Shown: positions 1 to 33,288, counted from the stretch's first letter. The stretch: DNA of 59,385 bases from Spirochaetaceae bacterium (GCA_031280035.1 JAITHJ010000011.1:1-59385), one strand, 5' to 3'. Notes: generated from the letters alone by a model not told the origin. Program-made: numbers and translations.

Positions 1-158
1 GTCTTTGCGCCGGCTGCGGAATCCTGCGTCTTACCGGCGGGAGCCTGAGACTGCGCGCCTGGGGCAAACGGATTGCCTTGCCCTCCTGAATGCTGGGCGT
101 CCAGCGCGCCACAGATGAAGACGGCAAAAACCGCCGTTAGAAAAAACTTGTTATTCAT
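1..158 (-). CDS. 5' part of an exported-protein gene running off the left edge (MNNKFFLTAVFAVFICGALDAQHSGG...)
   Basis: ATG at complement 156-158, with AGGAGG (complement 164-169) 5 nt upstream. The N-terminus is hydrophobic and signal-peptide-like, and the frame stays open to the window edge. It is too short for the ORF track. Confidence 0.5.
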   Translation of the reverse strand, partial: MNNKFFLTAVFAVFICGALDAQHSGGQGNPFAPGAQSQAPAGKTQDSAAGAK

Positions 159-181
159 ACTATCCTCCTGATTTTTTGTGA

Positions 182-490: not shown

Positions 491-590
491 ACTTTGCTCC
501 TTGTAAGGTATGTTTTTTTATTTTTACCCCGCCGCGCGGGGATGATTTGAGGAAGTTTGAGCCGAAAGTCCGCGCGCGCGTTCCGGCTTT

Positions 591-884
591 CTGGAAATCT
601 ACGGCTCGCTTCTATAAATCTACGGCTCGCTTCTATAAATCTACGGCTCGCTTCTATAAATCTACGGCTCACTTCTATAAATCTACGGCTCGCTTCTATA
701 AATCTACGGCTCGCTTCTATAAATCTACGGCTCACTTCTATAAATCTACGGCTCACTTCTAGAGTTCTACGGCTCGCTTCTATAAATCTACGGCTCGCTT
801 CTGGAAATCTACGGCTCGCTTCTGGAAATCTACGGCTCGCTTCTGGAGTTCTACGGCGCATTTCTAGAAGTCTACAGCGCGCTC
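591..884. repeat. 21-bp direct tandem repeat, ~14 copies (consensus CTATAAATCTACGGCTCGCTT; edge copies CTGGAAATCT.. / CTAGAGTTCT..)
   Basis: Read directly. Units start at 591, 612, 633 ... 864 with strict 21-nt phasing and a few point variants (cgctt/cactt, tataaa/tggaaa). The last two units are degenerate. Confidence 0.95.
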
Positions 885-1097
885 CCGAAAATCCGCGCCG
901 CGCGGAGGATAATCTGTTGTAGAGGAAGTGTATTTTGTCGAATGCGGACGGTAATCCGCCGTGCGCGGAATGTCTGTCCGCGCGCGCGCTTTTCTGCGGG
1001 CTTTCGGATACCGCTCTATCCACGGCAGTCTCCCGAAAAGAAGAAAAACAGGAACAAAAAAGAACGCGGTAAAAGGGGGTTTTTAAGAGAGCGGCGC

Positions 1098-1108
1098 GGG
1101 GGGGGGGG
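1098..1108. repeat. G11 homopolymer tract in the manC upstream region
   Basis: gcggcgc-GGGGGGGGGGG-agtg, read directly. It lies ~240 nt upstream of the manC ATG, in an 850-nt non-coding gap. Confidence 0.9.
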
Positions 1109-1344
1109 AGTGTAATTTCCGCGCCGCGCGGGCTTAAGCCGGCGCGCTAAAACGGCGCGGTTTAGGCCCCGTACAAGACCGGAATCGTTCAAACAGGTAA
1201 ACGCCGCCTCACTCATAGGCGGCATCTTACTCCTGATTAAAAAAAACGTCAAGAGGCCGCGCGCGCCGTCAGTGCCCAAGGCGGAATGCCCGCGTTCATC
1301 CTGACCGCTTGACTTTTCTTTCCGCATACCGCTTAAATATTTCT

Positions 1345-2751
1345 ATGGGAATTCATGTACTTATACTTGCCGGAGGTTCAGGAACGCGGCTTTGGCCGCT
1401 TTCCCGTGAAGACGTCCCCAAGCAGTTTCTTTCGGTTTTTGACGGAAAGGCTTCGCTGCTCCAGCAAACCGTCATGCGAATCCGTGAGTTTTCGGAACAG
1501 ACCGGCGGAACGCTTCACATAATCGCGGCAAAGAAGTTCGCCGCCCTGGTATCTCAGCAGATGGCCGAAATCACTATTGACGGGGACCTCCTGCTGGAAG
1601 AACCGGAAGGGCGCAATACCGCGCCCGCCATCGCGCTGGGGCTGACGCGCCTGTTGCAGAAGGACGTTCCGTCTCAGGATACCGTTATCGTGCTGCCCAG
1701 CGATCATCTTATCAGGGACGAGTCGGGTTTCCGGCAGGCGGTGCAGAAAGCGGTCCGCGCCGCCGGATCGGGCAATATCGTACTATTCGGCGTTGTGCCG
1801 CTAAAGCCGGAGACGGGTTTTGGATACGTAAAGACCGTTAAAACGAATAATTCATCGTGGCGAAAAGTTGAATCGTTTGTTGAAAAACCGGATCTGGAAA
1901 CCGCGCAAAAGTACGTTGAGTCAAACGCCTATTTCTGGAATGCGGGAATCTTTTGCTTTCGTATAAAAGATATGGTTGAAGCGTACCGGAACTATTTTCC
2001 CGAAGGCGCCCGTATCTTCAATGAAAGCGCCGCCAGCCGTAAGCGGGCGGAAGCGGCCTTTTTGAAAGTAAAGCCGGTTTCAATCGATTACGCCGTCATG
2101 GAACACGCCCAGAATATCGTCTGCATTGAATTAAACGCCGGATGGTCGGACGTAGGCTCGTGGGATGCGGTCTGGGAAAATTCCCCGCATGATGAAAACC
2201 ACAACGCCGTTTCAGGCGATGTGTGTCTGCATAACTGCGAAGGCGTCTTTGTCCACGGCGGAAAAAAACTCATCGCCGCCGTCAACCTGAAAGATATCGT
2301 CATTGTCGATACAAATGACGCGCTGTTTATCGCGCCGCGGCAGGCCTCGCAGGAGATACGCGCCGTTGTTCAGCGGATTTCCAAAGAACGATGCAGCGCG
2401 TCCGCTTTACTGAACAAGCCATGGGGAACCTGTGAGTTTCTTGAAAAACAGAACTATTACCAGATAAAACGCATAATACTGCTCCCCGGAAAAGAAATAC
2501 CGTTCCATTATCACCGTAACAGTTCCGGCCACTTAACGGTACTGAAAGGAACGGTCATTGTTGACTGCTTCCTCCCGGAAACACAGCCGCAGAGCAGGCC
2601 GCTCGGTGAAGGCGAAAGTATTCTGATTGAAAAGGGATTTATACATCATGTCGCAAATAATACCGCCGAGCCGTGTGAAATAATCGAAGTACAGACAGGA
2701 GACTGCAGCGCCGAAGATTATCAGGAATACCAGTTTAATGCCGGTCAGTAA
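1345..2751 (+). CDS. manC: mannose-1-phosphate guanylyltransferase / mannose-6-phosphate isomerase (bifunctional ManC/CpsB type)
   Basis: N-terminal nucleotidyltransferase motif LILAGGSGTRLWPLSR..PKQF and a C-terminal cupin (ENRPWG-like NKPWGTCE, HYHRNSS.H). I placed the start at the ATG at 1345 (MGIHVLIL) rather than the TTG at 1309 used by the ORF track. Confidence 0.9.
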   Translation: MGIHVLILAGGSGTRLWPLSREDVPKQFLSVFDGKASLLQQTVMRIREFSEQTGGTLHIIAAKKFAALVSQQMAEITIDGDLLLEEPEGRNTAPAIALGLTRLLQKDVPSQDTVIVLPSDHLIRDESGFRQAVQKAVRAAGSGNIVLFGVVPLKPETGFGYVKTVKTNNSSWRKVESFVEKPDLETAQKYVESNAYFWNAGIFCFRIKDMVEAYRNYFPEGARIFNESAASRKRAEAAFLKVKPVSIDYAVMEHAQNIVCIELNAGWSDVGSWDAVWENSPHDENHNAVSGDVCLHNCEGVFVHGGKKLIAAVNLKDIVIVDTNDALFIAPRQASQEIRAVVQRISKERCSASALLNKPWGTCEFLEKQNYYQIKRIILLPGKEIPFHYHRNSSGHLTVLKGTVIVDCFLPETQPQSRPLGEGESILIEKGFIHHVANNTAEPCEIIEVQTGDCSAEDYQEYQFNAGQ

Positions 2752-2821
2752 CAGAGCGTCTTCTAACGTTCCAGAGCGTAATACTCCTGCGCGTACTATT
2801 CCAGAACACCGCGCGGAGAGA

Positions 2822-4174
2822 ATGGTTTTTTTTGCGCTGTTTGCCTTTGTTATAATAGGCGCCGCCGCGCCCGCCGCGCCGTCAGACATCGAATGGTATA
2901 CCGCCAACGGTTCGGGAATGCTGCTTGAAAAAGTAGATAGAGTCCGCGCGCTGCGATTCGCTTACGCCGTCTCCGTTCAAAATTTAAAGCCGGAAAACGC
3001 CCCCAAAGGACTTCGCAGATTCTACACAACTCCGTGGCGGATAGAATGCCGCGTTCTTTACGAAAAAGCGCGGAGGGTAAGAACTCAATGGATCTTTAAA
3101 GATACTGGGGGTACGACATACCTTATCGCCGTCATAAGCAACGATGGATCCGGCTTTATCGAATGGCATGACGGCAACGGCTATGTTGTTGAAGAACAAA
3201 GACTCGCCGCCGACGGTTCGGGTTTTTTTATTTCCTATACCTACCGCGAAACGTACCTTCTAAAAGCCGATGTATACCTCATCGAAGCCGCCGTCCCATC
3301 AGGCGGCGCGCAGACAGGCGCGGCGGACGGGGCTGCACAGAACGCGCCAAAGCAGACTGCGCCGTCAAACGCGCCGGCGAGCGGCGCAGCGAATAACGGC
3401 GCGCAGACCGCTTTATCAGACGCTTCGGCGGATGACGCGGCGGACGGGACGGCGCAGACCGGAGCCGTGCAGGACGCTTTGTCAGACGCGCCGCCGGATG
3501 ACGCGGAGCCGCCGCCGCCGCAAATATCGGAGGCTGAACGGGTGCGAAACCCTGAAGGGCCGATGGCTTTTCCCGAAAACTTTATTGCAGCCTCAGGCAG
3601 GGAAAGAGGCAGGGCCTGGACGGATAATTACCGTTACACCCGCGACCTGAGCCTTCGCGCCATCGAGCGGGTTTATTACGATCCAAAAGCGGCTGAAAAA
3701 GCGCAGCGTGTTTTATTTCCGCGCTTTGTCTTAGGCTCGTCCGTAGATAAAGACTTTGTAAGGCCGGGCGCGTCTCTTGCCTCAGAGTTTCTTAAAGATG
3801 TTTATGATGAAACGCCGGCTTCCATCACCTATTTAACGGATGATAAGCGCAGAATACTCTCCGAAACCAGAAAAGATGAAACCGGAGAGATTATAGGCGA
3901 AATATCGTACGAATGGGATAATAACAGGGTAACGTCAATCGTGTGGAAATCGAAAGATGATGAACGTAAAATAGAATTCCTCTATAATGGAAAGGGCGAG
4001 AGGATAAGTGAAAAAGATTATCGCAACAGCGCGCTTGAAAGAATGGTAACCGTTAATGGCGATACGGAAATAGAAGAACTCTATCTTGAAAATAATGTCG
4101 CGCTCAGGGCCGTCTGGAAAGACGGAAAAAAAATATCCGAGGAAAGGATCTTGAACAGAAGAGTAGAACGATGA
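2822..4174 (+). CDS. hypothetical exported protein with a central Ala/Gln/Asp/Pro low-complexity linker
   Basis: Long ORF. The likely start is MVFFALFAFVIIGAAAPAAP (a hydrophobic N-terminus). The stop overlaps the lolC-like start (ATGA at 4171). The C-terminal part has YD-like beta-hairpin periodicity (weak signal). No family recognised. Confidence 0.6.
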   Translation: MVFFALFAFVIIGAAAPAAPSDIEWYTANGSGMLLEKVDRVRALRFAYAVSVQNLKPENAPKGLRRFYTTPWRIECRVLYEKARRVRTQWIFKDTGGTTYLIAVISNDGSGFIEWHDGNGYVVEEQRLAADGSGFFISYTYRETYLLKADVYLIEAAVPSGGAQTGAADGAAQNAPKQTAPSNAPASGAANNGAQTALSDASADDAADGTAQTGAVQDALSDAPPDDAEPPPPQISEAERVRNPEGPMAFPENFIAASGRERGRAWTDNYRYTRDLSLRAIERVYYDPKAAEKAQRVLFPRFVLGSSVDKDFVRPGASLASEFLKDVYDETPASITYLTDDKRRILSETRKDETGEIIGEISYEWDNNRVTSIVWKSKDDERKIEFLYNGKGERISEKDYRNSALERMVTVNGDTEIEELYLENNVALRAVWKDGKKISEERILNRRVER

Positions 4175-8411: not shown

Positions 8412-10139
8412 ATGAGTAATTTTCAAAAGTTTACAATTTTTTGTTCATTTTACAAGCCGCATTTAGCGCTTTTTACCGCCGATATGACATGCGCGCTTAT
8501 GGTTGCTTTTATCGATTTAAGCTTTCCCATGTTTACAAAGTGGTCTATTGAGAATCTTTTGACAGAAGGTCTTTGGAAATTCTTTTTTATATTTATTACG
8601 GGGCTTTTATTGTTATATGTTTTCCGCGCTATGTTTGTTTATTTTATTACCTATTGGGGACATAGCTGCGGCGCATTCATCGAAGCTGATATAAGAAACA
8701 GCATTTTTAAACATATACAAACTCTGTCATTTTCCTTTTTTGATTCGCAGCGTACAGGACAATTGGTTGGCCGTGTAACTACGGATCTTTTTGATATTAC
8801 TGAACTTGCGCATCATGGTCCGGAGGATTTGTTTATAGCGGGGATTACACTGATCGGTTCGTTTATCTTGATCTATTCTTTCAGGCCGGAAATGGCTTTA
8901 ATACTTCTTTTTTTTATTCCATTGATTGTTTTACATATTATTGGAAGCCGCGCCGGATTATTAAAAACTGCACGTACCGTAAAACAAAAGACAGGAGAAA
9001 TTCTTTCAAGCATGGAATCTAGTATTTCAGGCTTTCGTGTTGCTGCAGCTTTTACCAATGAAGAATATGAGCATAAAAAATTCAATGATGGTAATGAAGA
9101 TTATAAAAAATCGCGTATAGTTTATTTTAAGTCAATGGCGCGTTTTTGCTGCCGGACTGAGTTTATGACAAATGTCATGAATGTAATCGTACTTGCCGCC
9201 GGCGGCGCTCTTATCATGAAAAATAAAATGACATTAACAGAACTGATTACGTGCAATCTTTTTATGGCGTCATTTTTACAGCCAATCCGGCGCCTTCAAA
9301 ATTTTGTAGAAAGTTACACTGTTGGCATAGCCGGTTTTACACGTTATCTGGAACTTATGAGTGTTAAACCTGATATAGCGGATAACAAGGATGCGGTAGA
9401 AATTGATCATATTAACGGCGTAATCGAATATAAAAATGTAAGCTTTTCATATAATAAAGGAAAGCGTGTGTTTGCCGGTATTAATATTTCCATACCCAAA
9501 GGAAGTACGCTTGCGTTGGTAGGTCCTTCTGGAGGCGGTAAAACAACTCTTGCCGCGCTTTTACCGCGCTTTTATGAAATTATTGATGGTACCATAACTA
9601 TTGACGGCGTAGATATAAGAAAAATAAAACTTAAGTCTCTTAGGGAAAAAATCGGCATGGTTTCACAGGATGTATTTCTTTTTGCAAGCACAATAGAAGA
9701 TAATATACGCTATGGAAAACCTGACGCGGCCGTTGAAGAAATTGTAGATGCTGCAAAAAAGGCTGAGATTCACAGAGATATTATGAAAATGCCGGATGGA
9801 TATAAAACTATAGTGGGTGAGCGCGGAGTGCGTCTTTCCGGCGGACAAAAACAGCGTATCGCTATTGCCAGAATATTTCTTAAGAATCCGCCGGTGCTTA
9901 TTTTGGATGAAGCTACGTCAGCATTGGACAGCGTAACGGAAATTCGTATACAAGCCGCGCTGGAAGAATTATCAAAAGGACGTACGACGCTAGTTATAGC
10001 GCACAGGCTTTCCACGATACGAAACGCCGAAAACATTATAGTAATTGATGAAAACGGCATCCGTGAACAGGGCGGTCATGATAGTCTTATTGCTGCAAAC
10101 GGAGTATACGCAGAACTTTACAAAGCGCAGAACGGCTAG
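8412..10139 (+). CDS. ABC exporter, fused permease/ATPase (MsbA/multidrug type)
   Basis: Six-TM N-terminal half, Walker A GPSGGGKTT, signature LSGGQKQR, Walker B LILDEATSALD. Confidence 0.9.
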   Translation: MSNFQKFTIFCSFYKPHLALFTADMTCALMVAFIDLSFPMFTKWSIENLLTEGLWKFFFIFITGLLLLYVFRAMFVYFITYWGHSCGAFIEADIRNSIFKHIQTLSFSFFDSQRTGQLVGRVTTDLFDITELAHHGPEDLFIAGITLIGSFILIYSFRPEMALILLFFIPLIVLHIIGSRAGLLKTARTVKQKTGEILSSMESSISGFRVAAAFTNEEYEHKKFNDGNEDYKKSRIVYFKSMARFCCRTEFMTNVMNVIVLAAGGALIMKNKMTLTELITCNLFMASFLQPIRRLQNFVESYTVGIAGFTRYLELMSVKPDIADNKDAVEIDHINGVIEYKNVSFSYNKGKRVFAGINISIPKGSTLALVGPSGGGKTTLAALLPRFYEIIDGTITIDGVDIRKIKLKSLREKIGMVSQDVFLFASTIEDNIRYGKPDAAVEEIVDAAKKAEIHRDIMKMPDGYKTIVGERGVRLSGGQKQRIAIARIFLKNPPVLILDEATSALDSVTEIRIQAALEELSKGRTTLVIAHRLSTIRNAENIIVIDENGIREQGGHDSLIAANGVYAELYKAQNG

Positions 10140-18921: not shown

Positions 18922-19659
18922 TTACTTTAATAAATATTCTAATTTTGTTGTTATAAACGCCGTTTTATTTTTTGAAAAAATATCAAACGCTCCGCCGCTG
19001 CTGTAACTGTCCGGCGGTGAATTTTCAGCGATTATTTGGAATACGCCAAGATTCGCGGATTTCAGCTTTGTGATTTTAGCTCCGGCTTCTTTTGCTATGG
19101 TTTCCGCTCGTATTCTGGAATTTTCCGTAGCCTCAACAATCAAATTTAATTTTAACTCGTCCAGTTTTGTATAATAATATTCAGGCGCCATAGAAAGAAA
19201 TTCAACGCCTAAATCAATTAATTCTGTAATATCCCGTGATATTTGTTCAATTTTATCAACATCATTGGATTCTATTTTAACACTTTGTGTTAAGGTATAT
19301 CCGGTAAATATAGTATTAGTTAATCTCCCTTCATAATTATATTCATGATGATAGTTTTCTTGAATCCTTATCGAAGAAAAAATAATTTCATTCTCGTTAA
19401 TATTATTTTTTATAAGATAACTTTTTACCGCAAAAGCGTTATTTTTTAATTGGTCATAAGCATCTTTTGAAGTTTTTGCTTCTTTTGAAAAAGATCCACG
19501 CCAAACAATTAAATCTGAAGTAAATGATTTTGTAGCCGAACCCGTTACGGTTATATAGTTATTTTGAGCGGTTTTAAACGAAATAAGATTGGCTGAAAAA
19601 ATTAGTACGCAGATAACCACTGAAACGCATACTATCAGGGTTTTAACATATTCTTTCAT
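18922..19659 (-). CDS. SIMPL-domain (DUF541) periplasmic protein
   Basis: N-terminal TM/signal. The pattern ITVTGSA....D...W.GSF...... and overall length are typical of the SIMPL family. Confidence 0.7.
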   Translation of the reverse strand: MKEYVKTLIVCVSVVICVLIFSANLISFKTAQNNYITVTGSATKSFTSDLIVWRGSFSKEAKTSKDAYDQLKNNAFAVKSYLIKNNINENEIIFSSIRIQENYHHEYNYEGRLTNTIFTGYTLTQSVKIESNDVDKIEQISRDITELIDLGVEFLSMAPEYYYTKLDELKLNLIVEATENSRIRAETIAKEAGAKITKLKSANLGVFQIIAENSPPDSYSSGGAFDIFSKNKTAFITTKLEYLLK

Positions 19660-21757: not shown

Positions 21758-22891
21758 TTAGATTTCGCGCGTAACCTTTCCTTTGCCGGAAATTTTTTCG
21801 GTAAGCTGCGGATTGCCGCGGTAAACGACTTCACCTGCGCCGGAAATGTGTACGACAAGGTTATCTTTGCACCACACGCGCGCTCTGCCGGAACCGCTTA
21901 TGTCAAGATTTGCCATACTGACGGGAAAGTTGTTTGCGTCAAACGTTCCCGCGCCGCTTAATACAACGCGTACTTCTTGCATTCGGTCAAACACATTGTC
22001 GATAACTTCAATGCCGCCCGAACCGTCCATCAAAAAAACAAAGATGTTTGGCGTATATACATCGAGTACGCATTCGGTAAACTCAAGTTTTTTACCAAAC
22101 AATCCTTTTGTGCCAATACGCAGCATATTCTTCCTGACGATTATATCAAGATATTCTTTAAGATTCGCGTCGCAGTTTAGCGTAATTTTGTTTTCCGCAC
22201 TCTTATGCACACGAACGGTTACACCGTCCAGCATTGATTCAATGCCGGTAAATTCAGGAAGCGTTTGTTCAACCAGTTCTGTTACGCCACTGCCGCGTAT
22301 GGTTTTTCCGCCGCCGCGTGTTTTTTCGGTTATTTCTGGATTACCTTTACAGATAACGTTTCCCTGTCCAAGCGTTTCAATTGAAAGATTGTTTTCAGCC
22401 CATACACGCGCCGTGCCCGCGCCGGTAATTTTAACGCGCGCTGTTTCCACCGGAAACGCATCTGCTATAACATTACCAGAGCCTAAAACATCAATATTCA
22501 ACGTTTTACCGGCAAAGACATTATCAAGTATTTCTACATTGCTTGAGCCCTTAATAAAAATGCCGTTTAATTCATTCGTCCACACATCAACCGTAAAGAT
22601 AGTGAACTGGATATTTTTGTTAAACTGCCATTTTGAGCCGGTATATAAAACATTGTTTTTAACGGAGAGATCAACATATTCCTGCAAATTGGCGTCGGTA
22701 TTAAGAATGATTTTATTCTCCGCGCCTTTATGCACACGAATAAGAACGCTTCCCGTTGATTCAATTGCGTAAAAAGGCGCAATCTGTTTTTCTATAGACG
22801 CCGCAACGCCGTTTCCTTTGATAACATTCAACGAACATGAGACGAACGCCGCGCCCGCAAGAACCGCAAAAAAAAATTTTGTTTTTTCCAT
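21758..22891 (-). CDS. lipoprotein with two tandem DUF2807 (head GIN) domains
   Basis: Start at MEKTKFFFAVLAGAAFVSCS (lipobox), with GAGGAG SD. There is an internal duplication (..RVHKGAENKIILNTDANLQEYVD.. / ..RVHKSAENKITLNCDANLKEYLD..). GSG/GAG beta-helix-like repeats. Confidence 0.75.
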   Translation of the reverse strand: MEKTKFFFAVLAGAAFVSCSLNVIKGNGVAASIEKQIAPFYAIESTGSVLIRVHKGAENKIILNTDANLQEYVDLSVKNNVLYTGSKWQFNKNIQFTIFTVDVWTNELNGIFIKGSSNVEILDNVFAGKTLNIDVLGSGNVIADAFPVETARVKITGAGTARVWAENNLSIETLGQGNVICKGNPEITEKTRGGGKTIRGSGVTELVEQTLPEFTGIESMLDGVTVRVHKSAENKITLNCDANLKEYLDIIVRKNMLRIGTKGLFGKKLEFTECVLDVYTPNIFVFLMDGSGGIEVIDNVFDRMQEVRVVLSGAGTFDANNFPVSMANLDISGSGRARVWCKDNLVVHISGAGEVVYRGNPQLTEKISGKGKVTREI

Positions 22892-23003
22892 AAGAAACTC
22901 CTCTATAAGTTTTATCATTGATAAAATATTTATTCCATTCAACTGCACAATAATGCTGCTGAATGTTCTTTAATCCACCAACGGCGGCATATAAAGACAA
23001 AAA

Positions 23004-24422
23004 TCATTCACGTAGAAGAATACCTTCTTTTTTCAAAACGGTTAATGCATTGTTAAATTCTGCCAGTATTGTATCTATAGAAAATAAATATAATGATTGA
23101 TGTAAAGAAACAAAATCAATGCTTTCAACTAGCAGATCTTTAACAGTAATTCCTTCAACTTTATTTTGCAATGTTAATAGTATTGAAAAAAAGTATAGGT
23201 CAGTTATTTTATAAACTTCTGTTTGTTCGTGATTATAAAGATACATAACATTTTCAATTATATCATACGTAACAAGTTTATTTAATATTATGATTTCAGT
23301 CTCATGTAATTTATCTCGCAATTCATTTTGTATTCGTTCTTTTTCAAGAAAAAATATTTTTTTACAAGATGCCGGCGCGCTTTGTTTATCATTTTTATTA
23401 AGTCTTACTACTGTGCATGGAGTACATTCTTTTTTAAAGAATTTACATAAATTCTTGCATTCAGAGTAAATATTATTTAAACCAACACTGTACACATAAT
23501 TAAACTCTCTGAAAAGCGGTGCTTGTATAAGCGTGCTTATATCAGTGCTGGAAAGATTTATTTTTTCGAGATGTTTTTCTTTATAGATTTTTACAGTTTT
23601 TTCATTCTCCGTCAATCTATCACATGGATAAATAAAACCTTTCCAATCTATATAAGAATAGCCAAAACCAGCACTGCATGTACGCACAGGTAATTTAAGA
23701 TTATATCCATATTTATTATTAATATAATCAACAATAAGAGGTGAAGAAAATTTTGGAATTAATTGACAGTTAACATTTTTTTGTAGTGCGCCCAAACATT
23801 TTACAAGTTCAAACAATTCGTCTTGTGTAAACTCTTGAATATATTTATTATCTTTTTCAGTTATCAGTTCAAGTCCTATCCATTCATCAATGCCAATATC
23901 ATCAAGAAAGGTTATTAAGTATCCTAATTCAGCGATATTTTGCTTTGTAATAACAGTATTGACACAAATTTTATAAGGATTATTCTTGCATAGATTTTTT
24001 AGATTATCAATAACTACATCGTAAACTTTTCCACCGCGTATTTTATTGTGCGTTTCTTTAATACCGTCAATGCTTATTACTATTAAATCGATACAGGATA
24101 ATTTACGTAATTTTTCAATATATTGTTTTTTTAAAAGAAAGCCATTGGTATTGATGCCGACTTTTATTCCGCTTGTATTATTCTCTATATAAGTAAGAAT
24201 ATCCAAAAAATCTTTTCTATGCGTGGGTTCTCCGCCAAGAAACTGAATATGAGTAACGCCTATAGAATTTAATTTTGATAGAATAGTATAAATATCCGTT
24301 GTATCAATGTCCTTATAAAAATCATTTTCACGTTCTTTTTTATTGATGCAAAAAGAACATGCAAGGAAACATTGTTTGGTAATATCCCATTTTATGTTTT
24401 TAAGAAACATCTTTACCGCCAT
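23004..24422 (-). CDS. radical SAM / SPASM-type peptide-modifying enzyme with C-terminal PqqD-like (RRE) extension
   Basis: CX3CX2C motif at residues 18-25 (CFLACSFC) and a GGEPT motif. The SPASM-like region is CSAGFGYSYIDWKGFIYPC (Cx12Gx4C), followed by CKNLCKFFKKECTPC. The last ~100 aa (..LVTYDIIENVMYLYNHEQTEVYKITDLYFFSILLTL..GITVKDLL...LKKEGILL) follow the PqqD/RRE pattern. The gene is very AT-rich. Confidence 0.85.
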   Translation of the reverse strand: MAVKMFLKNIKWDITKQCFLACSFCINKKERENDFYKDIDTTDIYTILSKLNSIGVTHIQFLGGEPTHRKDFLDILTYIENNTSGIKVGINTNGFLLKKQYIEKLRKLSCIDLIVISIDGIKETHNKIRGGKVYDVVIDNLKNLCKNNPYKICVNTVITKQNIAELGYLITFLDDIGIDEWIGLELITEKDNKYIQEFTQDELFELVKCLGALQKNVNCQLIPKFSSPLIVDYINNKYGYNLKLPVRTCSAGFGYSYIDWKGFIYPCDRLTENEKTVKIYKEKHLEKINLSSTDISTLIQAPLFREFNYVYSVGLNNIYSECKNLCKFFKKECTPCTVVRLNKNDKQSAPASCKKIFFLEKERIQNELRDKLHETEIIILNKLVTYDIIENVMYLYNHEQTEVYKITDLYFFSILLTLQNKVEGITVKDLLVESIDFVSLHQSLYLFSIDTILAEFNNALTVLKKEGILLRE

Positions 24423-24516
24423 TTTAAAAAAGACAGGGATAATATTTGCATATTGTCCCTATCATTAGCATAATTGCAAATCAATGAGATTTGCAGTTGC
24501 TCCAACCACATTGATA

Positions 24517-24544
24517 ATTTAAGAGAGATATCTCTCTTAAATTT
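24517..24544 (-). terminator. perfect palindromic hairpin directly after the small-ORF stop (attenuator/processing stem)
   Basis: AATTTAAGAGAGATATCTCTCTTAAATT read directly. It overlaps the TAA stop at 24543-24545. There is no strong U-tract, so it is likely a partial terminator. Confidence 0.55.
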
Positions 24545-24620
24545 ACTCAGCTTCACAAAGATTGCAAAGATTGAGTGCAGGTGCTAAAATTGGAGCAAGT
24601 TCATCAGTGATTTTTTCCAT
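24543..24620 (-). CDS. candidate RiPP precursor peptide, 25 aa: MEKITDELAPILAPALNLCNLCEAE
   Basis: Hand translation of the minus strand. AGGAGG lies 6 nt upstream of the ATG (complement 24618-24620). It is 120 nt upstream of, and co-oriented with, the rSAM/SPASM gene. It has two Cys in a C-terminal NLCNLC motif. It is not in the ORF track because it is under 60 aa. Confidence 0.6.
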   Translation of the reverse strand: MEKITDELAPILAPALNLCNLCEAE

Positions 24621-24646
24621 TTATTTCCTCCTATTTATTAAGATTT

Positions 24647-24678
24647 TTTATAGTGCGCTGTATTTGCGTACTTGTCAA
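24647..24678 (-). promoter_or_regulatory. possible promoter for the peptide/rSAM unit (TTGACA ... CACTAT/TATAAA)
   Basis: The minus strand reads cTTGACAagtacgcaaatacagcgCACTATAAAaaatc. The spacer is 17 nt to CACTAT or 20 nt to TATAAA, so the -10 assignment is ambiguous. Confidence 0.35.
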
Positions 24679-24725
24679 GGTTTTTTACCAATTAACAATA
24701 ATATGTACAAGGGATTATTTCGCTA

Positions 24726-25571
24726 TCAAGAAACATGTACATAAATATTCTTAAAATTAAATGCAGCTTTAAACTTGACAAGCTTTTCTTTTGCGCTGGT
24801 GTAAGATTTTATGCCATATAGCGCAAAGTAAAATGCAAGTTCTTTTTCCAATGAATTACGAAGAAGGCGTATTTTTCTTTTTACGTCTAGCGGCATTACA
24901 GGAAATAAAGCAATATTTTCATTATAGATCTCTTCACAAAAAGCTTTAGCGTATTTATTCTTGTATTTATTTACATAAACATCTTCAATAATTTTATATT
25001 CATTGTATGTTTGATCGAGTACAGAGCGAAAGCCTTCTATACATTGTGTTTCACATAAACAAAGCCCGCTTACTACATTTGATTCTGCATCATACATAAC
25101 ATAAAGTACTTCGAATGCGCGTTCTTTAAAAAAAGAAATTTGCATAGTAAAAGTATAAAATACATGAAATCCTTTTATTAAATCAGCATCCTTGTAAATC
25201 ATATTTATATTATATTTACGCGAACATCCAATATTTGCGTTTTTTAGGAGAATGCGTAATGTATTGTATGAAATAAGAATATTGTTTTCTTTTAGCTTTT
25301 CTTTGATTTGCCTGATATTACAATTGGCGTATATATCACTTTGCACCAGTCCAATGATCCTCTTTCGTGTTTCTTCGCTGGTATAATTTGCCGGATGTTT
25401 GTTGGTATTACCATGAATAAACGCTTTTTTGCCGTATTTTCTTAATAATAAAACAAGCTGTTGAACACGCCGTACGCTTAGTCCAAGTTTTTGTGCAATT
25501 TCTCGAGTAGTACAGATACCATTAACTACATCTTTAATTAAGGTATATACGCGGTTTTGTTTTTCTGTCAT
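24726..25571 (-). CDS. HTH protein related to the N-terminal two-thirds of ISNCY-family (IS1202-group) transposases; truncated and probably non-catalytic
   Basis: The region YTLIKDVVNGICTTREIAQKLGLSVRRVQQLVLLLRKYGKKAFIHGNTNKHPANYTSEETRKRI matches the characteristic ISNCY N-terminal HTH/..HGNRG..P.N.. pattern. A residual ..LYVMYDAESN.. segment resembles the first part of the DDE core. At 281 aa it is shorter than the ~450+ aa I recall for such transposases. AT-rich. Confidence 0.6.
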   Translation of the reverse strand: MTEKQNRVYTLIKDVVNGICTTREIAQKLGLSVRRVQQLVLLLRKYGKKAFIHGNTNKHPANYTSEETRKRIIGLVQSDIYANCNIRQIKEKLKENNILISYNTLRILLKNANIGCSRKYNINMIYKDADLIKGFHVFYTFTMQISFFKERAFEVLYVMYDAESNVVSGLCLCETQCIEGFRSVLDQTYNEYKIIEDVYVNKYKNKYAKAFCEEIYNENIALFPVMPLDVKRKIRLLRNSLEKELAFYFALYGIKSYTSAKEKLVKFKAAFNFKNIYVHVS

Positions 25572-26076
25572 TTCAGTCCCCTTAATCTGATAATCTTGCC
25601 TTCTTACCGAAGGTAGGGTGTCTGCGCGCTATGAGCCGTAAACCGCTCTTGTTACTGAGATAGTGCGGAAATATAAGGAAACCTGAGAAAATATATCCGC
25701 AACACGCGGGGGTAGATAAAATGACGCGCCGAATTGTACAAGTTTTTGCTGTTGGTTACGCCATGTACTATACCGCCATTATTCATGGTAGACAGTATAT
25801 CAGCGCGGCATTTAGTTTGTCAACCGGTATCAAATAGTCCGTTGTCAGTTGCCGGATTTTAGCTATTCTTGCAAATATATAACTATAAAAATAAGATATA
25901 TATCTATTAGATTTAAATCTTGAGCTTTTTACGTAAAAACTTTAGATTACGGCTTGTTGGGTTTAGGCAGCCGGCGCATAGAGGCGCACTGTGGGGCTTG
26001 CGGATAAACTTGCAATGCCTGCGACTCTATGATAGACTTGCCGTTGTAAAATAGAGCGCTGTTTTGGAGTTGTAGT

Positions 26077-29055
26077 TTGTTTCTTAAAAGTCTTGATATT
26101 TTTGGTTTTAAATCCTTTGCCGATAAAACCCATATCGAATTCTCAGACGGAATTACCGCCCTTCTCGGGCCTAACGGCTGCGGAAAATCAAATGTCGTTG
26201 ACGCCATAAAATGGACGCTCGGCGAACAAAGATCCGCCGCCATGCGCGCCGAAAAAATGGAGGATGTCATTTTTAACGGCTGCGAATCACGCCACGCCCT
26301 CGGCGTAGCCGAAGTCGCCCTCGTTCTTGCCAACGATAACGGCCTGCTCCCGCGTGAAGAAGCCGAAATCGAAATTAAACGCCGCCTCTACCGATCGGGT
26401 GAAAGTCAGTATTTCATCAACAACCAAGAGAAAAAACTTAAAGATATCCGCGAGCTTTTTTGGGATACAGGCGTTGGTAAAGCCGCCTATTCCGTCATGG
26501 AACAAGGAAAAATCGACCAAGCCCTCTCCTCAAAGCCAGAAGAACGCCGCTATCTCTTTGAAGAAGCCGCCGGTATCACCAAATTTAAGGTGAAAAGTAA
26601 AGATGCCGAACAAAAACTCGCTAAAACTGAAGAAAATGTGCGCCAAGTCGAGGGAATTCTTAAAGAAGTAAAACATTCTCACGACAGCCTTAAAGTCCAG
26701 GCCGAAAAAACCTTGAAATACCGCAGCCTTAAAGATGAGGCCTTTGTTCTTGAACGCGATATTCAGCTGTTACGCCTCAAACAATTCCGTAATGAACATA
26801 ATGCACGCGAGGAAACACTCAGAAAACGTAAAGAAGAACGCGACTTCGTTAAAGCCGAACTCGATGCCGTTACTCAGGCCGTTGGAGAAAGTATGGATGT
26901 AGTCAATGATCTCCAATCCCAATTTAACGCTGCCCAGGTTGAGATTTTCGGACTGGCTAAAGAAAAACAGGGGCTGTACGATAATATAAAGCTGCTCGGC
27001 GAACAACGCGACGGATGTAAAAATATAATCACCTCCAATGAGAACCGTAAAACCGCCGCCGGCCTTAAAATCGAAGAATTATGCGCCGGCGCTGAAGAAC
27101 AGGACGGCATCGTCCTCGATATAAAAAAGAAAGTCGCCGCCATGGAAGAGCAAATAGCTTCCTTTGAACAGAATATCAATCTGGTTTCCTCCCAAATCAA
27201 CGAAAATGAAAAAAAAATCGGTCTCAATGAAGAAGAAATCATACAGCTCGAAAAACGGCAGCGCGTTCTTGAAGAAGAACTTGAAAGTATAACAGGTCGG
27301 CTCGTTACAGAGCTTGACCGCGGACTTAAGGACGCAAACTATTCACGTTCAGAGCGTGAAAACGCGGCAACAGCCCTTGAAGAATCGCTTAGCAAGATAA
27401 AAACAACGCTTGCAGGTAGAAAAGCGATACTGGAAGATCTTGCCGCCGCCGCCGACCGCGCGTCAAGCGGAGGAACGCTGCCTAAACCGGAAGAAATACA
27501 CCGTATCACGCTGAATCTGTCCGAAGAACTCGCCGCCGCCGCCGCGGAATCTGAACGTGCGCTGGATTTTTTTACCACGTACCGGAAAAATACGCCGTCT
27601 TTTCTAGACGAATTCCTTGCGCCTGAAGGAACTATAACAAGAAAACGAAATATAGACAGTGAAATCCACTCGGCAAAAGATACGGTGGCCGCAAAACGTA
27701 ACGAAATATTCAGTCTGCGGGAAGAAAACGGCGGCCTTGGTGTAAAAATCGAGCAGTATCGCACTACCCTACACGATCAAAGAGTAAGCCGTGCACAAAT
27801 GAACGCTCAATCCGGCGCGGCGGAAGAACAGGCCAGACTTATCCGGCGGGAACTCACCGGTCAGCAGGGACAGCTTAAGAATATTGAAGATGAACTTTTT
27901 CTCGCGCGGAAGCGGCTTGAAGAGGTCATTGAACGAATCGAGAATACCGAACACGATATAACCGAAATCGAAGCGAAAGAAAGCCGGCTTGCCTGTAATA
28001 GGGAAAAACTCGAAAAAGAGATAGCGGCACGGTCAAGCGACGTCTCCGGTAAACAGGACGAAATAACAAAAAAGAACGAAGAACTTTCAGGAATTAACAT
28101 AAGCCTTGAGCGTATTCATCTTGAACTTCTCCAGTCCGATACGGAAATAAAAAATATTCAGGATAATTTCCGTGAAACGCACTCCCGCGATCTTCTGGAA
28201 TTTGAAGAAAGAATGTACCAAATAACTTCAAACGCACAGGAGCTGCGTGAAAAACTTTCTGAAATACGTGAGACGCTTAAATCACTCGGTTCAGTAAATT
28301 TCATGGCGCCTGAAGAATTTACCGAGGTTAAAGAACGTTTCGATCATCTTACATCCCAAATGAACGACTTAAGCGCCGCCCGCGCGGATTTAGAAAAAAT
28401 TGTGGCTGAAATCCGCGCTGAGTCTTCAGAGAAATTCATGCTGACCTATAACAAAATCAAAAAGAATTTTCATAATATGTTCCGCCGGCTTTTTGGAGGC
28501 GGGCAGGCGCAGCTTAGGCTTACCGACAACAATCACGTATTAGAATCGGGTATTGAAATATTCGCACAGCCTCCGGGTAAAAAACTTGAAAATATTACCC
28601 TGCTTTCCGGCGGCGAAAAATCAATGACCGCCGTCGCATTGTTATTTGCCACCTATATGGTAAAGCCTTCGCCTTTTTGCCTGCTTGACGAAATTGACGC
28701 GGCGCTGGACGAAGATAACGTCGGGCGTTTTGTACAGCTTCTTCATGAATTCGGCAGTACAAGTCAGTTTATCATAATTACTCATAATAAAAAAACGGTT
28801 ATTGGGGCGTCTACTCTGCTGGGAATTACAATGCAGGAAAAAGGCATCACCAAAACTATTGCCGTTAAGCTCCAGAATGAAGAAGAGGCAGTTAGAAATT
28901 CGCCGCCGCCTGTTATCGGAGAATTTGGAGAATTTGTGGAGGAAGACGTTGAGCCTGAAGAAGGGCGCGAGCTTCCAGCCGGTATAAACGACCCTAACGC
29001 AGTCAGCGAGGTCGAAATTCATCCGATACGAAGCGGTTTGCCGGAAAAGACCTGA
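26077..29055 (+). CDS. smc: chromosome partition protein SMC
   Basis: N-terminal FLKSLDIFGFKSF...LLGPNGCGKSN, long coiled coils with a hinge, and C-terminal LSGGEKSMTAVALLFA...LLDEIDAALD. TTG start. Confidence 0.93.
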   Translation: MFLKSLDIFGFKSFADKTHIEFSDGITALLGPNGCGKSNVVDAIKWTLGEQRSAAMRAEKMEDVIFNGCESRHALGVAEVALVLANDNGLLPREEAEIEIKRRLYRSGESQYFINNQEKKLKDIRELFWDTGVGKAAYSVMEQGKIDQALSSKPEERRYLFEEAAGITKFKVKSKDAEQKLAKTEENVRQVEGILKEVKHSHDSLKVQAEKTLKYRSLKDEAFVLERDIQLLRLKQFRNEHNAREETLRKRKEERDFVKAELDAVTQAVGESMDVVNDLQSQFNAAQVEIFGLAKEKQGLYDNIKLLGEQRDGCKNIITSNENRKTAAGLKIEELCAGAEEQDGIVLDIKKKVAAMEEQIASFEQNINLVSSQINENEKKIGLNEEEIIQLEKRQRVLEEELESITGRLVTELDRGLKDANYSRSERENAATALEESLSKIKTTLAGRKAILEDLAAAADRASSGGTLPKPEEIHRITLNLSEELAAAAAESERALDFFTTYRKNTPSFLDEFLAPEGTITRKRNIDSEIHSAKDTVAAKRNEIFSLREENGGLGVKIEQYRTTLHDQRVSRAQMNAQSGAAEEQARLIRRELTGQQGQLKNIEDELFLARKRLEEVIERIENTEHDITEIEAKESRLACNREKLEKEIAARSSDVSGKQDEITKKNEELSGINISLERIHLELLQSDTEIKNIQDNFRETHSRDLLEFEERMYQITSNAQELREKLSEIRETLKSLGSVNFMAPEEFTEVKERFDHLTSQMNDLSAARADLEKIVAEIRAESSEKFMLTYNKIKKNFHNMFRRLFGGGQAQLRLTDNNHVLESGIEIFAQPPGKKLENITLLSGGEKSMTAVALLFATYMVKPSPFCLLDEIDAALDEDNVGRFVQLLHEFGSTSQFIIITHNKKTVIGASTLLGITMQEKGITKTIAVKLQNEEEAVRNSPPPVIGEFGEFVEEDVEPEEGRELPAGINDPNAVSEVEIHPIRSGLPEKT

Positions 29056-30681: not shown

Positions 30682-32157
30682 ATGAAAATACACCATGTTA
30701 TTTTTTTTCTGTTGATTGTATCGGTTACAGTTCAGTCTGTATTTGCTGATGATTCGGAAGCGCGTGGAATAGAGCAGGCGGGAACTGGACATGATGAGGA
30801 TTCAGGCGCTGAACAAACAGATAATTTAGAATCAGGCATTATCCAATCGATAGAAGAGAATGCAAAAAGTGAAACAGCTATTGTTGAAGGAGCGGCGTCC
30901 ACCGCAGCCGGAGCTGGAAAAAACCTTATTGAGGCAGTAGGGTCTTTTTCGAATTCCGCAGTTTCAAGCGGAGTAGAAAAAGCTACCCAAGATTTTCCTG
31001 TTTTCTTAAAACTGGGAATGACGCTTACCATCTTTGGCCTGCAAATACTTTTAATATGGATAGTCTTTCATTTTTCGAAAATTCTTAAAAAGAAAGTTCA
31101 GTTTTTCGGCGGAAAAAAATTTAAAAATGTTCATTTTAAATCTATAGTATTACTGGAATCAAAACAAATTGTAGCCGTTTTTTGTTTTACTATAAATGTT
31201 TTAAAATATGTTCTGGCTGTTTTTCAGCTTATTATTACAATTCCTATAATTTTTAATCTTTTTGAACCTACAAAAAATATTGCGTCAAAACTTTTTGGAT
31301 ACATATTTACGCCTATAAAGAATTTTGCTATCGGATTTATTTCTTATATTCCGAATCTTTTTACAATTATTGTTATTATATTCATTGCGCATTATACATT
31401 ACGCGCATTAAGATTTTTTACACATCATATTGAAAAAGGAAAACTGATTATTCCCGGATTTTACGCAGAATGGGCTTTGCCAACATTTAACATATTACGT
31501 GTATTGCTTATTGCGTTTACAGTTGCTATGGTGTATCCGCATCTTCCAAACTCAGAGTCAGATGTATTTAAAGGGGTTTCTGTATTAGTCGGTATTCTGT
31601 TTTCTTTGGGGTCAAGCTCAATCGTAGGCAATTTAATATCTGGTATTGTTATGACGTATATGCGGCCGTTTCAGCTTGGCGATAGAATAAAAATAAATGA
31701 TATAACAGGATTTGTAATAGAGCGCGGGCCTATGGTTGTACGTATTCGTACCCATAAAAATGAAATTGTTTCAATGCCGAATCAAATGGTAATGAATAAT
31801 TTTATAACAAATTATTCTACGCCTGCATCGCCTGCATCGGAAGAATTGAACGGCCTTATAGTACATTGTCCGGTTTCAGTTGGTTATGATATTCCATGGG
31901 AAAGGGTGCATGAAATTCTTCTTAAAGCTGCTGGTAAAACTGAAAATACTGAAAAAACGCCGGTTCCGTTCATTAATCACTTAAAACTTGATGATTTTTA
32001 CTGTTTATATGAATTAAATGTCTATACAAAAGAAGTTAATATTCTTCCAAAAATATATACGAATTTGTACCGGAATATTCAGTCGGAATTTGCAGAGAAT
32101 AATATAAGTTTGAATTGTCCGCATCTGCATATAGAAAAAAATGTAAGTGAATTTTAG
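30682..32157 (+). CDS. mechanosensitive ion channel (MscS family) protein
   Basis: The pore helix plus beta-domain motif GSSSIVGNLISGIVMTYMRPFQLGDRIKI...GFVIERGPMVVRIRTHKNEIVSMPN is typical of MscS. Confidence 0.85.
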   Translation: MKIHHVIFFLLIVSVTVQSVFADDSEARGIEQAGTGHDEDSGAEQTDNLESGIIQSIEENAKSETAIVEGAASTAAGAGKNLIEAVGSFSNSAVSSGVEKATQDFPVFLKLGMTLTIFGLQILLIWIVFHFSKILKKKVQFFGGKKFKNVHFKSIVLLESKQIVAVFCFTINVLKYVLAVFQLIITIPIIFNLFEPTKNIASKLFGYIFTPIKNFAIGFISYIPNLFTIIVIIFIAHYTLRALRFFTHHIEKGKLIIPGFYAEWALPTFNILRVLLIAFTVAMVYPHLPNSESDVFKGVSVLVGILFSLGSSSIVGNLISGIVMTYMRPFQLGDRIKINDITGFVIERGPMVVRIRTHKNEIVSMPNQMVMNNFITNYSTPASPASEELNGLIVHCPVSVGYDIPWERVHEILLKAAGKTENTEKTPVPFINHLKLDDFYCLYELNVYTKEVNILPKIYTNLYRNIQSEFAENNISLNCPHLHIEKNVSEF

Positions 32158-32160
32158 TAT

Positions 32161-33288
32161 ATGTCAAATATAATTGATCAAATTTTTTGGCGCGGTGATA
32201 TAACATTTAAATTGCGGCCGTTTAATTCCCTTGATAATATTGTTTTTTCTTTACTTGCGTATTTCAGTTTTGACGGGTTTGTACCGGACAATTTTAAAAA
32301 GCCTTATATTAGTTTGGAGAAACTATATAAAATGGTGAAAGATGAGCAAAACGATATTTTTTTTAGTTCTTCTTCGTGCTTTAAAGAATTTCAACGCGAG
32401 TTTTTCAAGAAACTTATGTCTTCTTCAAGATATAAAGATATATGTATAGCGGGTTTTGTAAATAAATTTGATAAGGAACGTGAAATGCAGTTTTCTGCTG
32501 TAACTATATTCCCAAAAGGCGCTCATCCATATATAGCGTTCCGTGGTACTGATTCTACTCTTGTAGGCTGGAAAGAAGATTTTAATATGGCGTTAAACGA
32601 TATTATTCCGGCGCAAACCGAAGCAAAACTTTATGTAAGTAATGCAAGCAAAAAAATATGGGGGAAATTTTATGTGGGCGGTCATTCAAAAGGCGGAAAT
32701 CTTGCAATATACGCCGCCACATGCGTTCCTGTTAAAATACAAAGAAGAATAGTAAAAATATTCAGTAATGACGGCCCTGGATTTCAGCAAAATTTCTTTA
32801 AAGATATAAATTATAAGAGAATAAAAAATAAAATAGAAGCGTTTATTCCGCAAAGCTCCATCATCGGCCTCTTATTTGAACGTGATTATAATATAAATGT
32901 TATTGAGAGTTCTGTACAGGGATTTATGCAGCATAATATGTATACGTGGCAGGTTTGTCCCGATGACTTTGTATATGCGCATGATGTAACAGATAAAGCA
33001 TTAGCCTTGAATAAGGCGGTTATGTCGTGGATTAATAGTATGGATATAAGCCAGAGGGAAAAATTCATTGAGACGCTTTATGAAGCCGTTAATACTACAG
33101 ATATAAATACAATTCCTGATTTTGCTGAAGACTGGTTTCATAATACCGGACGTTTAATCCGTACATTTATAAAAATGAAACCTGAGTCAAAAAAAATTCT
33201 AGTACACACTATTTCAGATTTTATAAGCAGCATGAAAAAACATAAGTGTGAATCATCCGATCAAAAATGTGGAGAACGACATGATTAG
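32161..33288 (+). CDS. DUF2974 / Mbeg1-like alpha/beta-hydrolase-fold protein
   Basis: FRGTD.TLVGWKEDF and the nucleophile-elbow-like GGHSKGGNLAIYAA. Confidence 0.7.
   Translation: MSNIIDQIFWRGDITFKLRPFNSLDNIVFSLLAYFSFDGFVPDNFKKPYISLEKLYKMVKDEQNDIFFSSSSCFKEFQREFFKKLMSSSRYKDICIAGFVNKFDKEREMQFSAVTIFPKGAHPYIAFRGTDSTLVGWKEDFNMALNDIIPAQTEAKLYVSNASKKIWGKFYVGGHSKGGNLAIYAATCVPVKIQRRIVKIFSNDGPGFQQNFFKDINYKRIKNKIEAFIPQSSIIGLLFERDYNINVIESSVQGFMQHNMYTWQVCPDDFVYAHDVTDKALALNKAVMSWINSMDISQREKFIETLYEAVNTTDINTIPDFAEDWFHNTGRLIRTFIKMKPESKKILVHTISDFISSMKKHKCESSDQKCGERHD

Follow-up and report, generated by a model that had tools for sequence, protein, structure and literature searches.

A putative horizontally acquired Asn-x-Cys peptide-maturation cassette without its exporter in a Spirochaetaceae bacterium

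A 59,385-nucleotide stretch of DNA from a Spirochaetaceae bacterium (GCA_031280035.1, JAITHJ010000011.1:1-59385; "the window" below means this whole stretch) carries an AT-rich island between a gene for a DUF2807 lipoprotein and smc. What does this island encode, and did it come from elsewhere? Three co-oriented open reading frames (ORFs) were found on its minus strand, at 24726-25571 (281 aa), 24543-24620 (25 aa) and 23004-24422 (472 aa), each where a preliminary description of the sequence had placed it. The first encodes a protein resembling ISNCY transposases, the second a putative precursor peptide with two Asn-x-Cys (N-x-C) units and the third a predicted radical S-adenosylmethionine (SAM)/SPASM enzyme. 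We hold with moderate confidence that the region from 23004 to ~25600 is a horizontally acquired AT-rich insert bearing a two-gene N-x-C cassette for a peptide that is ribosomally synthesized and then modified post-translationally (RiPP), that the exporter of this cassette has been lost and that its enzyme forms thioethers.

A precursor gene with tandem N-x-C units

The 25-codon ORF (24543-24620, minus strand) encodes MEKITDELAPILAPALNLCNLCEAE and is preceded by a Shine-Dalgarno (SD) sequence, AGGAGG (24627-24632), 6 nt before the ATG. A leader of about residues 1-16 is followed by a core of two N-x-C units, N17-L-C19 and N20-L-C22 (NLCNLC). Of the window's 599 small ORFs (20-60 aa), it alone had at least two N-x-C motifs, and it occupies the position of the precursor gene in homologous loci (L002-L006 and L021-L026, see below), with which it has the N-x-C motif in common; thus it is not a chance ORF. 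The start of its leader, MEKITDEL, resembles those of the precursors at L004 (MNDITAKF), L005 (MKKIKSKF) and L003 (MVNVTLDF), and its C-terminus (...ALNLCNLCEAE) fits the family pattern. The ORF that had first been picked out for its strong SD can accordingly be taken as a precursor gene, and comparably strong SD sequences precede the homologous precursor genes.

Both NLC units are encoded by a tandem duplication of 9 nt, two copies of CAATCTTTG on the minus strand (24556-24573; TRF period 9, 2 copies, 100%). Because this duplication is perfect, whereas the units of other loci differ at synonymous sites, the second NLC unit looks recent. The signals upstream of the gene (24627-24678, minus strand) include, besides the SD, a perfect -35 hexamer, TTGACA (24673-24678), and an imperfect -10, for which CACTAT (at 17 nt) and TATAAA (at 20 nt) are the candidates.

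The 126-nt spacer between the precursor and the enzyme gene had a predicted fold of -41.9 kcal/mol (z = -6.2), and none of 200 shuffled sequences was as stable. A perfect palindrome of 14+14 nt (24516-24543, minus strand) starts at the precursor stop and, being 100% complementary, would fold in RNA into a 12-bp stem with a 4-nt loop. The third of the predicted hairpins of the spacer lies at 24467-24501 (minus strand). A terminator- or attenuator-like element (24425-24463, minus strand), consisting of a hairpin (24432-24463) followed by CUUUUUU, ends just before the ATG of the enzyme gene. Such spacers were structured beyond their shuffles in 7 of 8 loci (z from -4.2 to -7.8). At the gathering threshold, no Rfam family was found in the whole 59-kb window.

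Domains of the maturase

The 472-aa protein (23004-24422, minus strand) may truly start at its second ATG (24410), in agreement with the MFLKNIKWD start of its homologues. Residues 1 to ~245 (23688-24422) matched the radical SAM core (PF04055, 8.5e-24; 85 bits, the cut-off being 29.5) and contain CX3CX2C (C18/C22/C25) and GGEP (63-66), both conserved across 24 relatives. Residues 249-353 (23364-23678) make up a SPASM domain with seven auxiliary-cluster cysteines. Among the same relatives C336 reaches at least 90% conservation, and the other six (C249, C267, C322, C326, C333 and C353) do not vary. The Pfam SPASM model remained below threshold in the window enzyme (17.2 against 21.5 bits) and rose above it in relatives P0005 and P0028. 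By these features the protein is assigned to the radical SAM and SPASM enzymes, and its cysteines predict that it binds auxiliary clusters.

An AlphaFold model of the full enzyme (24 sequences) reached a predicted local distance difference test score (pLDDT) of 88 and a predicted template modelling score of 0.86. Its best structural matches in the PDB, by Foldseek, were SuiB, SkfB and CteB, then the anaerobic sulfatase maturase anSME; SkfB was also the best PDB match by sequence (1.1e-15). SkfB differs from the window enzyme in carrying a Twitch-type domain, which holds a [2Fe-2S] cluster.

Residues ~377-472 (23007-23294, minus strand) are modelled as four strands followed by three helices, the arrangement of a RiPP recognition element (RRE, a PqqD-like peptide-recognition domain). 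Modelled alone by AlphaFold, residues 365-472 gave a pLDDT of 89.9, and their top Foldseek matches in the PDB were almost all RREs, led by leader-bound TbiB1 (5v1v/5v1u; template modelling (TM) score 0.74-0.78, root-mean-square deviation 2.6-2.9 Å) and including lasso B1 (6jx3), PqqD (5sxy) and the RREs of CteB and PbtF. Pfam PqqD was found at the equivalent C-terminal position in the distant relatives P0021 and P0028. The comparison at the sequence level was weak: hhalign against PqqD-bearing relatives gave E = 0.002 with a probability of 13.5%, and the window enzyme had no Pfam PqqD match. By its modelled fold the enzyme thus ends in an RRE, with the domain order radical SAM, SPASM, C-terminal RRE and no N-terminal extension. 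The preliminary description had mentioned neither this domain nor the family-defining N-x-C repeat, nor the hairpins of terminator type that lie between the precursor and enzyme genes.

No NCBIfam equivalog came near its cut-off for the enzyme, the best scoring 85 against 380 bits, so that it is not anSME, NirJ, MoaA, PqqE, PapB or another curated type. An identity as anSME was rejected: anSME is a structural neighbour only (rank 10), no equivalog reached its cut-off, the peptide lacks C-x-P-x-R and no sulfatase gene is nearby. A role in defence, raised by PADLOC matches to pVip (viperin; 76-81 bits), was also rejected; these matches were taken as the shared radical SAM core, and the SPASM domain, RRE and precursor point elsewhere. 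The preliminary description had read the locus as a radical SAM/SPASM peptide-maturation cassette, to be given up if the enzyme grouped with a non-peptide SPASM family of the anSME kind. No such grouping was seen among the NCBIfam models, and the PF04055 match, the cysteines, the RRE fold and a real precursor gene all agree with that reading.

A branch of short (360-aa) maturases lacks the C-terminal domain. In this branch, at L021 and L022, a short ORF of 84 aa stands between the maturase and exporter genes, in L021 (5070-5324) overlapping the maturase stop. It was considered as a split-off RRE; the position fits, the sequence is unsupportive (hhalign E = 0.29; no Pfam PqqD match), and the assignment was rejected.

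Homologous loci and their precursors

Nine other loci were found in which a small, SD-preceded N-x-C ORF is followed by a maturase gene and then by a gene for an ATP-binding cassette (ABC) exporter. The precursors of L004, L005 and L025/L026 read MNDITAKFVTGGISTHGDNACGGGSNACSLPGTSTK, MKKIKSKFGLGAALTGSNACNGSNACRGSNACQSVPILG (three GSNAC units) and MKFKIVKRHYGNSRLNNNCNNNCGTID; the C-terminal parts of the others read ...GASNACKGSNACIGSNACPTPY (L002), ...VQGSNACGGGSNACMISR (L003), ...ANGSNACSAPSVTSG (L006, one unit), ...AAGNNACGGGSNACGDTRNMD (L021/L022) and ...RLNNNCNNNCSEPK (L023/L024, the Anaerococcus tetradius type). Their cores are built from one to three GSNAC units, from GNNAC/GSNAC or from two NNNC units, and over all precursor cores Asn and Cys at positions i and i+2 are the sole invariant residues. 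The repeat units of the other loci vary synonymously (in L005, for example, GGG/GGT/GGC, TCA/TCT/AGT and GCC/GCG/GCT), indicating that the repeats are old and that selection acts on the peptide sequence. Canonically, a tandem-N-x-C precursor and a structured spacer are followed in this family by a radical SAM/SPASM maturase that ends in an RRE and then by an ABC exporter dedicated to the cassette.

The family is rare. Among 5.8 billion proteins, 64 matched the maturase and just 5 exceeded 36% identity; the nearest relatives reach 44% identity at most and lie on unrelated contigs. When 1.84 billion cluster representatives were searched with a profile, about nine scored more than 240 bits and 190 matched at E <= 1e-30. 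A scan of a genome collection yielded one close but deleted copy (L006) and distant radical SAM proteins of Verrucomicrobia, and one of a metagenome collection a single distant match. Viral contigs contained no maturase match and plasmids only relatives of 26-32% identity; a Clostridium perfringens plasmid cluster was inspected and turned out to be a different family. For neither precursor nor maturase was a specific Pfam or NCBIfam model found. No paper on an N-x-C-repeat family was found in the literature, where "GSNAC" returned unrelated acronyms only and "NxC" with radical SAM nothing. A link to bufferins was rejected as looking like chance (BufA2 against the GSNAC repeats, E = 0.0065; 16.7 against 60 bits, NCBIfam).

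These loci bear on whether the 472-aa protein could be a non-peptide SPASM enzyme (a sulfatase, cofactor or haem maturase) beside a chance 25-codon ORF. The tungsten-cofactor maturase, NirJ, AhbC/D and MoaA are indeed among its top NCBIfam matches by E-value, but these matches lie far under their cut-offs, as with the 85 bits above, and mostly reflect the generic radical SAM core. An N-x-C peptide gene stands upstream in nine loci, the ORF is unique among the 599, the enzyme is predicted to carry a C-terminal RRE and the other loci conserve an ABC exporter. This explanation is already contradicted and we regard it as extremely improbable.

The N-x-C cassette thus represents a rare, uncharacterised RiPP family, previously uncurated, with a simple signature (tandem Asn-x-Cys), an unusual C-terminal RRE and a conserved three-gene architecture; its likely chemistry already has precedents. 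Thousands of uncharacterised radical SAM RiPP families exist. This one is among very many, and it opens no long-standing question.

Predicted chemistry and comparison with known systems

How might the enzyme act on its peptide? The precursor would be translated from its strong SD, and the hairpins of the spacer, the last with a U-run, would limit read-through, giving much precursor and little enzyme, an arrangement classic for RiPPs. To judge from its fold, the C-terminal RRE would bind the ~16-residue leader (M-x-x-I-T-x-E-L). By analogy with known enzymes, the radical SAM cluster would cleave SAM to a 5'-deoxyadenosyl radical that abstracts a hydrogen from Asn, the SPASM auxiliary cluster would hold the thiolate of the Cys two residues downstream, and a C-S bond would form. 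Carried out twice, at N17-C19 and at N20-C22, this reaction would close two small thioether rings, which would have nine members with the bond at Cα (as in QmpB/suisactin) or ten with it at Cβ (as with NxxcB). A product with two thioether rings is predicted for the window peptide because nothing in the cores is invariant except Asn and Cys at i and i+2 and because both NxxcB and QmpB join Asn to Cys.

NxxcB joins Cys S to Asn Cβ across an N-x-x-C spacing, and an auxiliary Fe-S cluster has been proposed to activate the thiol (PMC9389541). QmpB makes suisactin, with two un-nested nine-membered sactionine rings, each with one intervening residue, linking Asn Cα to Cys S in an acceptor-X-Cys arrangement (PMC11851443, PMC13361665, PMC12395415). 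This type 2 sactipeptide system resembles the window cassette in having a radical SAM/SPASM enzyme that acts on a short precursor with an Asn acceptor, and its acceptor-X-Cys pattern fits the two N-x-C units of the window core. QMP clusters are streptococcal and linked to shp/rgg quorum sensing, whereas the window is from a spirochaete, and the cassette has no Rgg-type regulator and a transposase-derived gene upstream of it. Moreover, the window precursor lacks the QMP motif, the window maturase has a C-terminal RRE, and other members of the N-x-C family have 2-3 G-S-N-A-C units and an ABC exporter. The cassette is thus not placed in the QMP subfamily; what is claimed is that it works like QmpB, not that it is a member.

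NxxcB is likewise a radical SAM/SPASM enzyme that joins a Cys thiol to an upstream Asn (PMC9389541), but it acts on a single N-x-x-C motif with a Cβ bond and is streptococcal and rgg-linked, whereas the window has N-x-C in tandem. The ranthipeptide systems PapB/freyrasin and SCIFF/CteB share minimal clusters and repeated short Cys motifs that are each cross-linked by one SPASM maturase, and the window maturase has CteB among its best matches both in structure and in sequence. PapB, however, joins Cys to Asp in C-x3-D, the RREs of both enzymes are N-terminal, and the NCBIfam PapB model scored 66.9 bits on the window enzyme against a cut-off of 340. SuiB (streptide) is the closest solved structure (Foldseek 9e-15, TM score 0.55-0.61) and SkfB the closest PDB sequence; both are leader-dependent RiPP maturases, at only 17-21% identity to the window enzyme, and SuiB differs in making a Lys-Trp C-C bond and in its N-terminal RRE.

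That SuiB, with its Lys-Trp bond, is the top structural match and anSME a close one also shows how SPASM maturases of similar fold carry out very different reactions, and the literature stresses that function in the radical SAM superfamily cannot be predicted from sequence (PMC10288494). The cassette could accordingly be a working RiPP cassette with another chemistry: Cys oxidation or epimerisation, cross-linking through a C-C or C-O bond, or a thioether with another acceptor. We consider this unlikely, though a serious alternative, since Asn and Cys at i and i+2 are alone invariant in all precursor cores and both known radical SAM reactions between Asn and Cys give thioethers (PMC9389541, PMC11851443). 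If the thioether prediction is true, suisactin-type nine-membered sactionine rings, or Asn β-thioethers, extend well beyond streptococci.

Loss of the exporter

A fused ABC_membrane and ABC_tran exporter of 522-604 aa is encoded directly after the maturase or within ~320 bp of it in 9 of 9 other loci. These exporters track the maturase phylogeny, those of L003 and L006 being 88% identical and the others 28-44%. A tblastn search of the window with them found only a generic ABC protein (8412-10139), 22-26% identical, 13 kb away and the sole fused ABC protein in the 59 kb. The preliminary description had remarked on the lack of a protease, exporter or immunity gene nearby, and this was borne out. 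It had gone on to call the locus unusually stripped-down. The minimal layout is real; however, since all nine homologous loci carry a dedicated, co-evolving exporter, it is best read as exporter loss and not as design.

Several observations weigh against the reading favoured here. The window holds no cassette exporter, the DUF2807 gene following the maturase after 55 bp, and no protease is near the cassette; this copy may be non-producing. Two of the three other treponeme-type copies, at different sites, are pseudogenes: in L001, from a Termitinemataceae metagenome-assembled genome (MAG), the maturase gene is split and the precursor missing, and L006, from the MAG Treponema sp. Gx481_bin52, has a maturase internally deleted to 127 aa beside a one-unit precursor and an intact exporter. 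The NLCNLC core of the window lacks the G-S context and has a period of 3 residues against 4-7 in other loci, and in view of the perfect 9-nt duplication the ancestral window peptide probably had a single unit. The precursor promoter is imperfect, its -10 keeping it out of the promoter scan. No att site, integrase or flanking direct or inverted repeats mark the insertion, and no tRNA gene does so in the whole 59-kb window. The thioether chemistry is drawn from the motif and from analogy, no member of the family having been characterised, and the likeness to QmpB and NxxcB comes from published descriptions.

Some of these points would equally suit a decaying, non-producing remnant whose remaining ORFs are, after exporter loss, simply unbroken so far. 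The exporter present in every other locus and missing here, the broken copies at L001 and L006, and the atypical core with its fresh second unit all favour such a remnant. On the other side, ORFs of 472 and 281 codons are still open in DNA of 28-31% G+C, all catalytic and cluster cysteines and GGEP are intact, and the SD, hairpins and leader motif are preserved. Several RiPP families, SCIFF for example, function without a local exporter. We regard a mere remnant as possible, and as less probable than the reading favoured here. A further proposal, that N-x-C-repeat peptides are an undescribed RiPP class kept here without exporter for an intracellular role (a metal- or redox-active peptide, or a signal) and not as a secreted antimicrobial, is speculative and improbable. 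In the reading that we favour, this copy has lost its exporter and kept enzyme and precursor intact, and is either a partly decayed acquisition or served by an unrelated transporter.

The L006 copy lies in a 5-kb island (L006 3000-8000) of 0.33-0.37 G+C in flanks of 0.51-0.55, which also contains two unrelated ORFs of 349 and 129 aa without an assigned function.

Origin of the island

The G+C content was 0.26-0.32 over 23001-25500 against 0.44-0.48 on either side (500-nt sliding windows). From 23004 to 25571 it was 0.292 against 0.423 for the whole window, the minimum among all segments of 2.57 kb (mean 0.419, standard deviation 0.048). G+C at third codon positions (GC3) was 0.19 in the maturase gene and 0.23 in the ISNCY-like gene, compared with a mean of 0.38 (standard deviation 0.075) in 42 other ORFs of at least 200 aa; the island thus stands ~2.5 standard deviations under the mean and is the most extreme stretch of the window. 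The sharp drop in composition that had been noted from a few hand-counted lines is confirmed by both measures.

Maturase genes of the family have 0.16-0.32 G+C whatever their surroundings: the cassette is flanked by DNA of up to 0.61 in L003 and of 0.51-0.55 in L006, and for L021 the contig as a whole stands at 0.48. The fuller members of the family lie on low-G+C contigs (L002, 0.20; L004 and L005, 0.31) or in Anaerococcus-type Firmicutes. The horizontal acquisition that the preliminary description had drawn from low G+C is therefore strengthened, the cassette being compositionally foreign here and AT-rich also in unrelated hosts and inside G+C-rich flanks.

The Smc protein of the window was 74% identical to its best match and 63-64% identical to those of Treponema primitia ZAS-2, Breznakiella homolactica and Leadbettera azotonutricia, indicating that the host is a termite-gut spirochaete of the Treponema/Breznakiella type. 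In the three nearest relatives with long contigs (L017-L019; Smc 65-68% identical), unrelated genes were found upstream of smc and the cassette was absent there, so the case that would have spoken for long residence, the same genes at the same place in relatives, was not encountered. As Smc identity to the nearest genomes is only 65-74% and synteny with them does not extend upstream of smc, this absence says nothing about an empty site, in which the DUF2807 gene would directly adjoin smc. The family was missing from the other sampled treponeme genomes bar the two decayed copies at different sites. Because the cassette is AT-rich in every host and two broken treponeme-type copies stand at different sites, repeated horizontal entry followed by decay in treponemes is likely. 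At the genome level, this would be an AT-rich biosynthetic cassette that repeatedly enters termite-gut treponemes and decays there, the present copy being at the stage of "exporter lost, enzyme intact".

Could the region instead be native, its low G+C a local mutational or functional bias in a patchy genome? The window has other low-G+C genes, at 18922-19659 (0.31) and 30682-33288 (~0.34), mobility hallmarks do not flank the island, and no empty site was found in the three nearest relatives, where synteny is broken. Against this, the island is the most extreme of the window in GC3, the cassette keeps its AT-richness in unrelated hosts and between G+C-rich flanks, its nearest relatives are distant and on unrelated contigs, and the family is otherwise known in sampled treponemes from decayed copies elsewhere. 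A native origin is in our judgement very unlikely. For the acquired cassette, a blastn comparison of the island with all loci and with the remainder of the window revealed no shared non-coding ends, and the scans of viral contigs and plasmids gave no phage or plasmid link.

In a related spirochaete (L019/L020, 7123-7635) a gene for an IS200/Y1-type transposase lies directly upstream of smc; the region upstream of smc may be a recurrent insertion site in this lineage.

The ISNCY-like gene

The gene at 24726-25571 (minus strand, G+C 0.31) encodes a 281-aa helix-turn-helix (HTH) protein derived from an ISNCY/IS481-type transposase, with weak HTH_29/HTH_28 matches. Like ISNCY-family transposases, it has an N-terminal HTH and aligns over the first half; it differs from them in matching only half of the profile, in being short and in having no inverted repeats around its gene. 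NCBIfam ISNCY_2 (NF033594) matched at 7.6e-21 and over profile positions 2-195 of 368 only; the 74.7 bits fall short of the cut-off of 250, and the protein is ~90 residues shorter than this model. It is probably not an active transposase, and to judge from the alignment, what follows the HTH may be a compacted DDE core whose catalytic residues have been replaced.

A single homologue was found among the 5.8 billion proteins, P0186, which has 286 aa and is 47% identical, the two aligning colinearly over 98% apart from one 1-residue gap; its gene adjoins a pseudouridine-synthase-like gene in DNA of ~49% G+C, with no radical SAM gene nearby. The gene had been called truncated and decayed, which is not borne out by an intact 281-codon ORF with a homologue of matching length. 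As a sign of horizontal arrival, the use first made of it, the gene is weak evidence, no other cassette having such a neighbour. The ISNCY-like gene is separate, of similar foreign composition, and not a conserved part of the cassette; it may have arrived with the cassette, or may regulate it. An HTH protein beside the L001 pseudogene was considered as its counterpart and found to be unrelated.

A promoter-like site (25794-25823, minus strand), TTGACA and TATACT spaced by 18 nt and with a TG, lies upstream of the ISNCY-like gene and is the best of the region (11/12 matches). The site is no more than a match to the consensus, such sites being no more frequent in the region than in shuffled sequences, and it may drive transcription of the whole island.

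Neighbouring genes and other compositional patches

The island is flanked by smc (26077-29055, plus strand), of host-type composition, and by the DUF2807 (GIN-domain) lipoprotein gene (21758-22948, minus strand; PF10988, 2.6e-39), which at 0.43 G+C lies outside the AT-rich DNA. The likely start of the lipoprotein is M20 (22891), with the lipobox FVSC. A DUF2807 gene adjoins the maturase gene both in the window, downstream, and in L001 (3132-3839), where it is upstream of the pseudogene and island-like in composition (G+C 0.31-0.35). The two proteins are only 25-29% identical, and the adjacency may be due to chance, to a neighbourhood preferred for insertion or to a link in function.

Elsewhere in the window, a SIMPL/DUF541 gene (18922-19659, minus strand; G+C 0.31, GC3 0.24) stands between host-type genes and may be foreign too. 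A second low-G+C patch (30682-33288, plus strand; ~0.34, GC3 0.25-0.28) holds genes for an MscS-like channel and an Mbeg1-like protein (PF11187, 4e-77). At the 5' end, positions 1-4174 have 0.50-0.58 G+C against 0.36-0.43 in the next 15 kb, with a sharp boundary at ~4000; this G+C-rich end contains a ManC-type nucleotidyltransferase/isomerase gene (1309-2751) and a 478-aa ORF without a Pfam match (2738-4174).

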